Position numbers and translations under genes: made by a program. This document shows positions 6,640 through 30,686 of a stretch of DNA of 34,538 nt, piece by piece. Each line of letters begins with the position of its first letter. Position 1 is the first letter of the stretch. The notes under the pieces were generated by a model that made no database searches, was not told the origin of the DNA, and was given only the letters and a program-made list of their open reading frames with translations. This DNA comes from Chiloscyllium plagiosum (taxonomy: Eukaryota), in the NCBI RefSeq assembly GCF_004010195.1, contig NW_025214824.1, positions 1 through 34,538 on the forward strand, given 5' to 3'.

Positions 6640-7520
6640 TCACAAGCTCTCAGCTGTTAGGAAGGAGGCATCTGCTGGATCAATAGGACTGTGCTCCCAT
6701 TCCCGTTTCTGATACCGAGACTGGTGCTGGGTGTACTGTCCAATTTTAATCATTAAGTGCTCGGAACAGTTTGATACAATACAATGTCTTGCTTGGCATT
6801 TTAGAGATCGTTGAAGAGTTTGCCACATGTTTGTCGTCTGGAGGCACTTTTAGGCCAGAACAGGAAAGCAGGGGAGATTCACTGCCTGAAAGTACATTGG
6901 GAAGGCAATTGGTGTTTACAATCGACATTGGCTTCAAGGTCACTGTTACTGACAGCGAATTTTAGATTTTGATATCTTATTAGTTGATTTGAACTTCCAC
7001 AAGCTGCCAGAGCATTAGCCTGGTCGGGATTGGTAATCAAGTGACATTTCCACAACAGCACCATTTCCACATGGGACCCAATCGGAAACCACACTGAGCA
7101 GATAATTTCTGTGCTGCTTGACAGCTCTGTAAAAAATAACTCACACCATTTTGTCTATCGTGATGGGACTGAGGGGGTGGTAAATTGTCAGATTGTAATG
7201 ATTCTTCTCTTAAGAGACTGGACATAGTTGAGGAATTTTCCACGTTGCCAGGGAGATGTCAGAGTTGGAGCTGGAATGAAACAGTTTCCCCAGGGACACG
7301 GCTTGTTATGCAGCACAAGTCTTCAGTCCTATTGCAAGAATGGTGTCAGGGCCCAATGCCTTTTTCTTACCTACTGTGTTCAGCTCTTGCTTCATGTGAG
7401 GTGCAGCGAATCGAATTGGTTGGAGACTGGCATCTGTGATTCTGTGGGGATCATCTAAGGAACACTTCTGGCTGAGGATGGTGCAGACATTGCATACTGT
7501 CTTTTACACTGATGTGCAGC
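6640..7520 (-). mobile_element. Degenerate fragments of a second LINE family (CR1/L2 group, distinct from the main CR1)
   Basis: Minus strand 7230-7520 gives IFSQKC..DASLQPIR..GIGPDTILAIGLKTCA..LGKLF..WKI, the pre-RT GPD/LK/WK motifs. 6640-6810 resembles the same family's upstream region. Confidence 0.55.
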
Positions 7521-14489: not shown

Positions 14490-14900
14490 AAGTTTGGACG
14501 ATACAAATACCCAGTGGGTATCTACCTGATACATGCTGCTGAAGATCTTGTATGTTTCAGTAAGATCACCTCTCTTTCTATGAGTAACCATAATATAAGG
14601 CCTCCATCCCTCGAATACATGAAGTGAACCATCTGTGAACTGCTTCCAATGTAATTATATCCAATCTCAGGGAAGTAGACAAAAAATAAACCTCACACCC
14701 AAGATGAGGCTTTTTTTTTTGTTTTCTCAGTGCTATGAGTTTTTGGAACTCTCTTCCCCGCAGACCGTTGGAGGCAGAGATATCGAATATTTTTGAGGCA
14801 CAGATAGAAGGTTCATAAGTAACAACAGAGTCAATGATTATCAAGGAATGTGCAGGGATGTGCAGCATGGAGAAATGTTGACAGTGGTACAAAATGACAC
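14490..14900. mobile_element. Two short CR1 fragments: minus ~14490-14705 and plus ~14720-14900
   Basis: Minus strand RKRGDLTETYKI and LEAVHRWFT. Plus strand TTGGAACTCTCTTCCCCGCAGA..GGAGGCAG. Confidence 0.65.
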
Positions 14901-15044
14901 TGCTTCAGAACATCCGGCAAAACGAAATGGTAATCTAGAAAACATCTTAAAATGCTAACAGTGATAGAACAGAGTTCCAAGGACCATAGAGCTGCTCTGT
15001 CCTTAGAGAGAGACCACTTGTGCTCGTTTAAACTGAGGGTCACC

Positions 15045-15489
15045 TGTTTTAAAAAATTCTCAAGGTCAGGTTCGTAGGAGAGTAGTCTGACACAGAACAA
15101 ACGACCAAGAGGCGAGTCTGCTAGAATATGAGCATTTTATTCCCCGCAGCGTCGCCACAACCAGGTCTCATACTTACAACGGGTCTGGCTTATCTCACTC
15201 TACATGTTACCGGAACTGGGAGCCGTCAGTTCTCGTAGAGCGGTTGCCAACAACCCACGCTCGGCGGTTAAAACGTAACCCCGGAGCAGACTCACCGAAC
15301 TGGAAACTTTTCCAGCTGATATACTCTTTTCCAGATATAAACATTCATGTGAACAGCAGAGCAAGGCTAAAAAACACATTCCATTCTGGTTACATACAGA
15401 TAAGAAGATTCACACGGGACTAAGCAACACCTCCATTCCGGTTAGATTCACACATGTATTGGGACATAATTTTTAACCGTTTCACCACA
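15045..15489 (-). repeat. 3' LTR (445 bp)
   Basis: Minus strand TGTGGTGAAACGG...AAAACA, with AATAAA near 15135-15141. Confidence 0.95.
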
Positions 15490-16014
15490 TTCCACTGCTT
15501 GGAATTTTACACCACATGGCTGGGCTACAAACGCCCGTACTTGTACCGGGTCCGGGGTTCGAGGGACCTTCCTTTTCTCTTTCCGTTTCTTAGCAGACAG
15601 ATACATAATAGTTCGTCCTGCTAGTTTAGTTAATGCTGTCAATTCAGCTTTTAACTTCATAATTTCCTGCCTCAACATAGAGGCATCTCCCGAACTGAGT
15701 CCCTGCTCATGTTTCAGGAGGGCTAATTCTGCTTCAGCTTTTTGGCGCTTGTCTGACTGTTGTCTACAAGCCGCCGCACAGGCCCACATCCTCCGCTGTA
15801 CCCCAGGCAATGGGTTCTTCGGCAGGACTGGGATCCTCTCAAGGGTGGACAGCAGCGACCCTGGGGTTCCTACGCCCTCGGCCTCCCAGTCCTCCGGTCG
15901 CCCCCCACCATTTCTCAAACAAACTGCCACGCCATGCCACGGCCCATGCCATCCTGGGACGGTCGGGACCTCCACAGTTTGTTCCTCTGGTTTCTTAGCC
16001 TTTTTCCAAAACAT
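15448..16014 (-). CDS. gag: 188-aa ORF resembling the N-terminal region of ERV-L/class III-like Gag; C-terminally truncated, reads through the PPT and stops in the 3' LTR
   Basis: True ATG (ACA-ATG) lies 35 nt after the PBS and there are no internal stops. Motif order GPWHGVAVCL / MWACAAAC / heptad coiled coil / PDPVQVRAFVA parallels ERV-L Gag SPW..GW..coiled coil..VKVRAL (by-eye similarity). Confidence 0.7.
   Translation of the reverse strand: MFWKKAKKPEEQTVEVPTVPGWHGPWHGVAVCLRNGGGRPEDWEAEGVGTPGSLLSTLERIPVLPKNPLPGVQRRMWACAAACRQQSDKRQKAEAELALLKHEQGLSSGDASMLRQEIMKLKAELTALTKLAGRTIMYLSAKKRKEKRKVPRTPDPVQVRAFVAQPCGVKFQAVECGETVKNYVPIHV
15490..15500 (-). promoter_or_regulatory. Polypurine-tract-like sequence
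   Basis: Minus strand AAGCAGTGGAA directly abuts the TG of the 3' LTR. Confidence 0.65.
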
Positions 16015-16049
16015 TGTTCTGTATCAAAATCTTTCCTCAATTGCGATTG

Positions 16050-16067
16050 ATCCTGCCGGCTACGCCA
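16050..16067 (-). promoter_or_regulatory. Primer-binding site, tRNA-Ser
   Basis: Minus strand TGGCGTAGCCGGCAGGAT lies 3 nt after the 5' LTR. It matches the complement of the vertebrate tRNA-Ser(AGA/TGA) 3' end ATCCTGCCGACTACGCCA at 17/18. Confidence 0.9.
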
Positions 16068-16070
16068 AAA

Positions 16071-16549
16071 TGTTTTAAAATAATTCTCAAGGTCAAGGAC
16101 CAGGCTCGCAGGAAAGTCGTCTGACACAGAACAAACAGCCAAGAGGCGAGTCTGCTAGAATATGAGCATTTTTATTCCCCGCAGCGTCGCCACAACCAGG
16201 TCTCATCTTACAACGGGTCTGGCTTATACTCACTCTACATGTTACCGGAACTGGGAGCCGTCAGTTCTCGTAGAGCGGTTGCCAACAACCCACGCTCGGC
16301 GGTTAAACGTAACCCCGGAGCAGACTCACCGAACTGGAGACTTTTCCAGCTGATATACTCTTTTCCAGATATAAACATTCATGTGAACAGCAGAGCAAGG
16401 CTAAAAAACACATTCCACTCTGGTTACATACAGATAAGAAGATTCACACGGGGAGGTGTGTAATAAGATTCACACGGGACTAAGCAACACCTCCATTCCG
16501 GTTAGATTCACACATGTATTGGGACATAATTTTTAACCGTTTCACCACA
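16071..16549 (-). repeat. 5' LTR (479 bp)
   Basis: Direct repeat of 15045-15489 with an extra 26 bp in U3 (16453-16478) and a divergent U5 end. Confidence 0.95.
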
Positions 16550-17102
16550 GTCACCACACCTCCATTAATGGGTTAAGGGTGAGACAGCGTCCCCATCATG
16601 GTAACCTCTGTCAGTGTGGTGAATTGAACCGGCGCTGTTGGCCTCCAACTGCATCACAAACCAGCCATCCAGCCAACTGAGTGGGAGACAGAAACAGTCA
16701 CAGGCAAAGGGCAAGAGAAACTTTCATAACAAAGAAAAAGGTACAATTCAGATAACGGTCAAAATAACGACTGAGAGTAAAAACGTTCTCAGCTAGAAAT
16801 TGTATTTTATGATGAGACAAGTATTTCAAAGCCGTCTTTGACTGAATACGATAAGGTGATACAAATGACATAACGAGAATTACTAATTGTGATTGGATAT
16901 CGATAACCATAAAATGAGTGTAGACATTTGATTGGTCTGTGTAAAATGTGCTTACCATTTTTATAAAGCAAGACACTAGTGTGGGCTGCATATCACCCAA
17001 TGCTGGACAGACCGTTTCACCTGGGTTACTGAATCAATGCTCCGGTGTGACTGTGCTGGTCCCCATGTTGGACAGATAGCCAGTGGCCTGCTGAGACTTA
17101 CG

Positions 17103-17310
17103 CAGTATTCCATCCTGGAGAGATTGCTGGGTTGTACTGAGCCTAGTCTGCACAGTGCTCCATCCTGGATGATTGCTGAGTTGTCCTGAGCCTGGTCTGC
17201 ACAGTACTCCATCCCAGACAAATTGCGCGGTTGTCCTGAGCCGGGTCTGTGCAATGCTCCATCCTGAACAGATTGTTGTGTTGAACTGAGCCTGGTCTGC
17301 ACAGTGCTCC
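17103..17310. repeat. Diverged minisatellite, ~50-bp unit x ~4
   Basis: Consensus CAGTGCTCCATCCTGGANAGATTGCTGNGTTGTCCTGAGCCTGGTCTGCA, with a weaker copy upstream from about 17050. Confidence 0.9.
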
Positions 17311-17499
17311 GTGCCCAGCAGGTATCTCATCTAGGTTTATACGTGTCTGGGCAGGGTCTGTGAAGTGGATTGAGTATCCAGTATAATTCGTTATCGAGCT
17401 ATCACTCCTCCAGCTCGGCGCATTCCGCTGTTAAACCCCGTATTTCTGCAAAATGTTGTCCATTAAGTAATTAACCAATTAAAACATGAATGTCTGTCC

Positions 17500-28553: not shown

Positions 28554-30141
28554 CATTCCTTGCTCCCTGTCGTGTTCCTGCCTAAGCTATCCCTGCACTT
28601 TATTGTTTGTGATTACGGTATCTCCTTCCAGCCTCGCACTTGCAACCCTGCTGTTGAGGATCCCATGCCGTCCCCCACGCCAGCCAATCTAGTTGAAACC
28701 CTCCCTTGTAGCATTAACAAACCTGCTAGCCAGGATATTAGTCCCCTTCCAATTCAGGTACAACCCGTCCTTCCTGAACAGGTCACCTCTGCCCCACCAA
28801 AGATCCGAGTGATCTAAAACTCTGAATCCCTACCTCCTGTACCAATTATTTAGCCACGCATTCCTCTGCCGTGTCCGCCTGTTCTTACCCTCACTAGCAC
28901 AAAACACTGGAAGTCAACCGGACATTACCACTGTCGTGGTCCTGTCTTTTACCCTTTTTCCTCGCTCTCTATAATCACTCTGCATGACCTCATCATTATT
29001 TCTACCTGTGTCATTTGTACCCATGTGCACAATGACTTCTGGCTGCTCCCCCACCCCGGTGAGAACGTTCTGCAGCCGCTCTGAGACATCCTGGACCCGG
29101 GAACGTAGGAATCTATACATCATCTTGGATTCCCATTTGCATCCACAGAATCTCTTGTCTGATCCCCTCACATATCGAGTCTGAATCATTACTTCTGAAG
29201 TTATCCGTCTCGCATAACCTTCTGACAATGGGATTTCTTCCTGAAACAGTTGGATTTGGCTGAATTGCTTTGCTTCAGGCAGTGGGGAGATTCCAATGAA
29301 TCATCATCAGGAAGCCTCCATGAGGGAAAAGACGACTAGGCTTTTTTTAGTCCCACACAGTGCTGTGTTGAGCGGCAGGGAAACAGAAAAGGAGCAACAG
29401 GCTGTTCCTTCACAGACAGGCTACATTTTCTATCTGTAAGTTAAATCAGTAAAGTTATCAGGTCCGAAACGGGACCATGTGAGCTCTCCTTGAATATTGT
29501 CTGAACTATATGACTCCATCACATTCTCGTCTCCAGGTCAGTGCATTATTGCTGTTGTCATACACCGAATCAATTCATTAACAATAAATGGCTCTACTTG
29601 TTTTGAAGATGTGTTAATATGCACCTGCATAATGTAAACATAAGCGTTTGATGACTTCACAATATCTGTGTTAAGATGAATAAGTTTTATTGTTAAACAA
29701 ATACAGAAATTGCTGGAAAAGCTCNNNNNNNNNNNNNNNNNNNNNNNNNAATCTTTGAAAAAATTCGAAAGCAATTTTGTTTTTATCAGTTAAGGCAATT
29801 ATAACGACACATAATACATCAGATGTGATCTCAGCAATGGCCTGGTCTGATGCAAAAATCATCACTAAGATCAAACACAACACCCCTTACACGAAACAGA
29901 ATCATTCCATTTACTTCCAAATCACCAGCTGCATCTTCACAGTAAGTTGATGTGGTTCATGTACTCAGACACACAGATCCCTCTGTACCACTCAGTTCTG
30001 CATTCTCCTTGCATTTAAATAATTTTCTGCTGTTTTGTCTTTTCCCCAAAACAGAAAATTCCCATCACAGAAATGTTGTACTTTTTTTTCTGCTGAAGAT
30101 TTGCTCAAAACTGTCCTCTGTCTGTATGTCATTGCTTGATT

Positions 30142-30686
30142 CTCTGCCCCTCCCCTGTCTGCATCCCATTGCAGACACTCTGCCCTCCCCCTGTCTGTAT
30201 CCAATTGCAGACGCTCAGCCCTCCCCCTGTCTGTATCCTATTGCAGAAGCTTTGCCCCTCCCCTGTTAGTATCCCATTGCATACGCTCTGTCCTCCCCTG
30301 TCTGTATCATATTGTAGACGGTCTGCCCTCCCCGTCTGTATTCCACTGTAGACGCTATGCCTTCCCTGTCTGATGCCATTGCAGACGCTCAGCCCTCCCC
30401 CTGTCTGTATCCCATTGCAGACGCTCTGCCCTCCCCCTGTCTGTATCATGTTGTAGGCTGTCTGCCCTCCCCCTATCTGTATCCCATTGCAGACGGTCTG
30501 CCCTCCCCCTGTGTGTATTCCACTGTAGACGCTATGCCTTCCCCGTATATATCCCATTGCAGATGCTCTGCCCTCCCCCTGTCTGTATTCCATTGCAGAT
30601 GCTCTTCCCTCCCCCGTCTGTATCCCATTGCAGATGCTCTTCTCTCCCCCTGTCTGTATCCCATTGCAGACGCTCTGCCCTCCCCC
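30142..30686. repeat. Minisatellite, ~36-bp unit x ~15, running into an N gap
   Basis: Consensus CTGCCCTCCCCCTGTCTGTATCCCATTGCAGACGCT. Confidence 0.97.

Follow-up and report, generated by a model that had tools for sequence, protein, structure and literature searches.

Within a stretch of 34,538 nucleotides of the shark Chiloscyllium plagiosum genome (contig NW_025214824.1, positions 1 to 34,538, hereafter the window), an LTR-flanked element contains an open reading frame (ORF) of 188 codons that begins like a retroviral Gag protein and ends inside an LTR. The first-pass annotation of this DNA saw a truncated Gag with a possible retained function, either as an aid to the packaging of its own RNA or as a dominant-negative protein reminiscent of Fv1, and kept as a fallback that the frame is open only because the element is young. 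Why is this frame still open, and does its product have a role? Here, we followed the element from its insertion site to its parent family and compared the ORF with its closest relatives in the same genome and in protein databases.

Structure and insertion site of the element

The ORF-bearing element is 1505 bp long (15045-16549, minus strand) and has two LTRs about 1035 bases apart (Table 1). When the complement of its primer-binding site (PBS) was searched in the genome, all three matches were tRNA-Ser(AGA) genes. The host sequences on either side of the element belong to one repeated unit, of which contig C8 contains many copies. Four paralogous sites without the insertion are contiguous across the duplicated bases, with a 6-bp overlap. 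The element therefore represents a clean insertion into a host repeat. This host unit covers positions 14560-17050 of the window, and its many other copies, at 77-94% identity, lie for the most part on the same contig C8. Tandem repeats are also present elsewhere in the window, with a 50-bp unit at 17103-17318 and a 36-bp unit at 30118-30686. One contig from run X8 ended at the target duplication with 11 unaligned letters and could have corresponded to an empty site, but it was discounted because the flank is repeated. As for host genes near the insertion, the 46 frames of at least 75 codons starting in the 9-26 kb region returned only weak RT and GIY-YIG matches.

Table 1. Features of the element and of its target site, in window coordinates.
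Feature	Position	Strand	Remarks
Target-site duplication, upstream copy	16550..16555		6 bp, identical to 15039-15044; family norm 5 bp
Upstream (5') LTR, 479 bp, TGT...ACA	16071..16549	-	U5 subtype A, like most long proviruses
Primer-binding site	16050..16067	-	17/18 bases complementary to the host tRNA-Ser(AGA) 3' end + CCA
188-codon ORF	15448..16014	-	165 Gag codons + 1 filler codon + 22 LTR codons, stop
Gag N-terminal 165 codons of a 603-codon ERV-L/Fv1-family Gag	15520..16014	-	96-98% protein identity to long sisters
Predicted long helices, residues 70-149, likely coiled coil	15568..15807	-	Model prediction; present family-wide
Basic patch, residues 142-149, closing the helical stretch	15568-15591	-	Family-wide
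Three junction bases	15517..15519	-	Absent from sister gag genes and from the LTR
Downstream LTR, 472 bp, whole subtype B	15045..15516	-	Start and U5 as in the abundant solo LTRs; not preceded by a PPT
PPT relic in U3: 13 bases of the family's PPT-position sequence	15490..15502	-	A second TGTGGTG follows
Target-site duplication, downstream copy	15039..15044		6 bp, identical to 16550-16555

The ORF as the N-terminus of a Gag protein

The stop-free frame starting with ATG at 15448-16014 was recovered in full, with 188 codons on the minus strand; the plus strand of the same interval contains stops. Several features pointed out in the first-pass annotation were also found, namely the A at position -3 of the ATG and the basic run, located at residues 142-149. 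Around residues ~85-135, where a heptad coiled coil had been proposed, long helices are predicted at residues 70-103 and 108-149. Moreover, the identification as a truncated ERV-L-type Gag was correct, residues 1-165 being the N-terminus of the 603-residue Gag of sister copies. The similarity had been said to end at VRAFVA, just before a tryptophan-rich motif, and the break indeed lies one residue after VRAFVA. A W-D-x-x-x-W-x-G-x-x-W motif is present right after the break point in the sister Gags and in most of 23 aligned homologues. This motif and the basic patch are family-wide among the aligned Gag homologues, and the helices, the basic patch and the ATG context are features inherited from the virus.

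A search of the shark's own genome with the internal region of the element gave at least 53 matches, with 40 of the 67 candidates scored. Apart from the element itself, the seven best loci match the first 520-548 internal bases at 94-99%, and none of them enters an LTR at that place. Starting from the same ATG, two of seven long sisters have ORFs of 603 codons and three have ORFs of 331-526 codons, while another is interrupted by a gap and the last has an early frameshift. The 603-residue sister Gag had 98 homologues at E<=0.001. Among its best matches, three of the ten clusters that were looked up were named Fv1-like or Gag (killifish, pipefishes), as was a fourth, from a frog. The Fv1-like name reads in full "Friend virus susceptibility protein 1-like" (E 3e-78 for the representative of that cluster). 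The relatedness to Fv1 suggested earlier thus holds for the family, whose Gag has fish homologues with the annotation "Fv1-like". The window ORF itself matched a killifish Gag at 33% over 168 columns (E 8e-20). Word-index protein searches returned two shark proteins only, from basking shark and white shark (73-75%). Both are in-frame fusions of the Gag N-terminus to env-like or RT sequence, and open-frame deletions are therefore common in the family.

Searches against domain and structure libraries covered both the stub and its parent protein. The only Pfam match of the 188-codon ORF had an E-value of 0.18 and is not meaningful, and none of the Pfam Gag families matched the ORF or the sister proteins. 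Neither the ORF nor the full Gag nor two profiles gave anything informative in sequence searches of the PDB, and an ESM Atlas search with the ORF retrieved generic coiled-coil clusters only, with low recognition. The model of the ORF was weak (mean pLDDT 58), and Foldseek found no match to it at E<=0.001 in the PDB and viral libraries. The single-sequence fold of the full sister Gag (mean pLDDT 40) was too poor to be used as a search query, so the position of the capsid rests on homology and on published studies.

The junction between gag and the LTR

The first-pass annotation took the frame to run through the PPT into U3. Instead, gag and three extra bases abut the LTR tip at 15516. The 34 bases at 15483-15516 have 524 exact occurrences in the genome, and at 21 of 30 sampled loci they mark the start of a solo LTR whose 5-bp target duplication lies at the same TG. 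At three other sampled loci they follow the full PPT-position sequence, and at the remaining six no LTR end was found. The downstream LTR therefore starts at 15516, the PPT-like 13-mer being internal to it. This LTR is complete, and the PPT relic is contained within its first 27 bases. The stop codon had been placed about 40 nt into the LTR, which is right when counted from the inner TG (42 nt) but not from the true LTR start, 69 bases away. The three frames of the LTR start extend over 22 (the one used), 2 and 10 codons before a stop, and a tail of 22 LTR codons is ordinary and not beyond chance. The relic inside U3 is likely a leftover from the loss of a hairpin from one unit of the tandem PPT-U3 repeats of this family (see below).

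The gag stretch preceding the junction was found at nine loci. Eight of these go on in gag and one, the window element, joins an LTR. The three junction bases are absent at that place in all eight sister loci, and the junction pattern has a single match in the assembly with one mismatch allowed. The two LTRs of the element are of different subtypes, the upstream one resembling that of most long proviruses and the downstream one having the U5 end of the solo LTRs. We rejected the idea that a solo LTR had simply inserted into gag, since no 5-bp duplication surrounds the downstream LTR. Dating by LTR divergence was also rejected, as the pair differs at 8 of 420 bases with additional large gaps and consists of two subtypes. 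The word "young" thus stands in this analysis for few mutations and not for an absolute age. At the slow rate given for the elephant shark, with 0.033 taken as 75 million years, 1% may amount to ~20 million years (PMC4422223).

A class III shark retrovirus as the parent family

The parent copies (L031-L038) are little diverged and differ in which of their genes are broken. One of them has a 1332-codon in-frame fusion spanning a deletion. Downstream of the sister gag is a pro-pol ORF in the same frame, followed by a third, env-like ORF; in L034 and L035, the pol ORF begins directly past the gag stop, again in the same frame. Pfam recognized RVP, RVT_1, RNase_H and rve in the sister pol ORF, then a dUTPase at 986-1113, and found no envelope match in the third ORF. 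The solved RTs nearest to the RT of this family are of the MLV and foamy types. Target duplications were 5 bp in 11 of the 13 two-LTR sisters for which both ends were found, and the other two had none. The parent family has all the class III layout features that were tested (ERV-L/XtERV-S-like), namely the ERV-L/Fv1-type Gag, the dUTPase after the integrase, the stop between gag and pro-pol in one frame, the tRNA-Ser PBS and the TGT...ACA ends with a 5-bp duplication.

The XtERV-S family of Xenopus tropicalis is described as having a tRNA-Ser PBS, an in-frame gag stop, a dUTPase after the integrase and a 5-bp duplication (Yedavalli et al., 2021, PMC8278194), all of which are shared by the shark family. 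According to the same description, the basic patches of XtERV-S Gag are at residues 6-10 and 130-149 (PMC8278194). The shark Gag also has basic patches near its N-terminus and around residues 130-149, and no Cys-His box, and TGT...ACA ends and a third env-like ORF are further common points. The differences are the shark host and a Gag of 603 instead of 530 residues, and the likeness between the two families is one of layout. XtERV-S is reported to include 19 deleted two-LTR copies (Xt-S4 to Xt-S22), mostly single, which usually keep the PBS, leader, 5' gag and PPT (PMC8278194). Single deleted two-LTR copies with PBS, leader and 5' gag are found in the shark family as well, and both families have many solo LTRs of altered type. 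The window copy departs from the deleted XtERV-S copies as described in its lack of a full PPT, its 6-bp target duplication and the differing subtypes of its LTRs.

The 3' ends of the shark family contain tandem repeats of 63-80 bp, each made of the PPT-position sequence and the first U3 bases, with up to about ten units. They were located in L032 (minus strand, ~6760-7200 from the element-sense start), L012 (2076-2848), L014, L021, L026 and L037. The 5' LTRs and solo LTRs begin at different repeat units, a pattern that suggests plus-strand priming at alternative PPT copies. In the literature covered, nothing on point was found on tandem PPT-U3 repeats or alternative priming. In addition, the PPT-position sequence and the tip of the LTR lie within an inverted repeat of 13-14 bp (L037:4685-4800 and L032:2790-2890, both on the minus strand). 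One arm of this inverted repeat lies upstream and the other in U3, and it folds, with z-scores of only -1.5 and -1.1.

Mismatched U5 subtypes were observed in 5 of the 12 LTR pairs scored (window 15045-16549, L013, L019, L020 and L023). The target duplication is intact in the window copy and L013 and absent in L019 and L020. Such mixed pairs could result from intermolecular strand transfer, conversion, ectopic recombination or assembly chimeras. We also observed among the ERV-L-type Gag homologues four proteins on short contigs (P0088 and P0128-P0130) that are filed as "hypothetical" proteins of Klebsiella pneumoniae and are likely vertebrate contamination of bacterial assemblies. No description of the shark parent family was found in the literature, within the parts covered of the ERV surveys PMC10699275, PMC10435555, PMC6001957 and PMC4422223; their supplements may list it, as may the supplement of bioRxiv 10.1101/2024.07.05.601823.

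An amplified family of short sisters

A short non-autonomous family (L011-L030) is present in at least 21 copies, with 21 exact matches to its junction, and its gag is broken near codon 80. The gag break is followed by ~250 bases of degenerate pentamer repeat (L013:1790-2045) and then by PPT repeats. At all 18 loci read, the frameshifted gag stubs are only 53-88 codons long, and spread therefore requires no long Gag. The short family has the full PPT-position sequence and has spread, whereas neither is true of the window copy. Short non-autonomous LTR elements of this kind, called TRIM-like, are represented here by L011-L030. Like the window copy, they are small, with two LTRs, a PBS and a gag remnant but without pol.

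Why the frame is open

As far as they are sequenced, six of the seven long sisters with the ATG are open over the stretch. Compared with five sisters, the window ORF has 5-11 substitutions in 156 codons, with pN/pS ratios of 0.24-1.26 (L007 and L008 were excluded from this count because of gaps). Four of the five pairwise ratios are below 1, from tiny counts that mostly reflect the virus's own history. Only one change is private to the window ORF relative to four sisters, and it is synonymous. In a neutral simulation, the frame was still stop-free in 78% of trials after 5 substitutions. The comparison of dN/dS and stop frequency among copies, which had been proposed as a check on function, thus returned no selection signal, the counts being too small to show constraint either way. 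A synonymous private change and low ratios would be compatible with constraint, in the sense that they do not contradict it. The frame is likely open by descent, from a parent gag that was open and with about one change gained since, which would leave nothing to explain. The data therefore favour the fallback explanation of a frame that is open only because it is young, with almost no mutations collected.

We consider it highly probable that the ORF, in which 165 codons of a class III shark gag are fused to an LTR tip within one deleted provirus, is an unselected by-product with no job. One accidental join would have placed gag on the exact start of a subtype-B LTR, and the same event would have removed the full PPT together with env, pol and what remained of gag. 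That the join falls precisely on the TG tip suggests that a processed LTR end was broken or joined during integration or reverse transcription, and speaks less for a random later deletion. The three filler bases and the 6-bp duplication would fit such an aberrant event. The frame, presumably inherited open and altered by about one change since, would simply end at the first stop of U3. The resulting copy is probably unable to spread, its relic PPT being judged a poor primer because hundreds of LTRs retain it untrimmed inside. The inner TG is where the upstream LTR starts, as expected had the relic primed; the different subtype of the upstream LTR, on the other hand, argues against its being a copy of the downstream LTR. 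In one run, poly(A)-like loose ends were found near the AATAAA of the LTR, a hint of transcription of the family. Translation of the stub would be possible, given the intact LTR and native start codon, and any product may be expected to be a helical, basic Gag stub without the capsid core. The window copy is likely a dead-end deletion derivative.

Alternative explanations

The ORF would not exist at all if the element were an assembly chimera and the real locus a longer provirus, an element of the short family or a solo LTR. The contig is indeed unplaced, 52 kb long and interrupted elsewhere by N gaps, and the two LTRs are of different subtypes. Moreover, in four runs from four studies, no contig covers 15517-15520 among the 32 of 2437 pieces listed; in these pieces, the gag contigs end at 15520, and loose ends continue in the parent gag in two runs. 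However, the element is free of N, and its flanks belong together, as indicated by the 6-bp overlap in the paralogous empty sites. A junction with filler bases and no shared sequence would also be unlike an overlap mis-join. Rare variants are lost from contigs, and a junction that occurs once, next to a family with many copies, counts among them. We therefore regard a chimera as unlikely.

If the stub were expressed, it could behave as a dominant-negative, Fv1-like inhibitor, its coiled coil pairing with full-length Gag and poisoning assembly. Fv1 is a mouse restriction factor derived from the MuERV-L gag, described as having an N-terminal coiled coil for dimerisation as well as an MHR and a C-terminal domain needed for function and virus binding (PMC3948346). 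The stub belongs to the same Gag superfamily and keeps, as a predicted helical and likely coiled-coil N-terminus, the region that in Fv1 is reported to be a coiled coil needed for dimerisation (PMC3948346); its family is Fv1-related, and its native promoter region and start codon are intact. A precedent is found in p22 of Ty1 (PMC4599808), reported as a dominant-negative Gag fragment that inhibits particle assembly. However, Fv1 has the MHR and the C-terminal capsid-binding domain that its activity requires (PMC3948346) and is found across wild mice, whereas the Gag part of the stub ends at residue 165 of 603, inside a provirus, in one copy and with no sign of selection or conservation. The MHR is given at ~238-276 in XtERV-S and Fv1 (PMC8278194, PMC3948346), and that of XtERV-S at 238-257, well beyond residue 165 (PMC8278194); the most distant Gag homologues align in ~250-430, a region that is lost in the stub. 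Lacking the MHR and the C-terminal domain, the stub therefore falls outside the Fv1-like proteins and would have at most the role of a dimerisation half. No solved restriction factor or capsid matched it in sequence or fold, with a weak model (mean pLDDT 58). Such an inhibitor is thus very improbable, and we give as little credit to an Fv1 in the making, in which the LTR-driven 188-residue stub would pair with full-length Gag and block particle assembly of its own recently spreading family in the shark germ line with the dimerisation half alone. More generally, the retained function put forward in the first-pass annotation found no support, given the single-copy junction, the one private substitution and the missing capsid-binding domain of Fv1, and its chances appear very slim.

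The same annotation had also proposed that the stub favours its own RNA, which would make the window copy a non-autonomous but active element, with a Gag stub that promotes packaging of this RNA by assembling together with helper Gag. The element does have two LTRs, a PBS, a PPT relic and a target duplication, and the basic patch could bind RNA. However, there is one copy of this element against at least 21 for the family with a frameshifted stub, no full PPT precedes the 3' LTR, and the LTRs are not copies of each other. Neither a full PPT next to the 3' LTR nor dispersed copies, as expected of a mobile element, were thus observed (1 junction match). That the junction is single-copy speaks against any benefit in cis to the RNA of this copy. 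The packaging reading is largely refuted by copy number and has almost no chance of being correct.

Significance for the family

If the frame is an unselected by-product, as we favour, the window element is, on its layout, ordinary, one more deleted two-LTR copy with 5' gag of the kind known from XtERV-S. What is of some value at this locus is the parent family that it reveals, a shark class III retrovirus with the layout of XtERV-S, little-diverged copies and unusual tandem PPT-U3 repeats. Were the stub nevertheless expressed and inhibitory, it would represent a first step of Gag domestication in cartilaginous fish.
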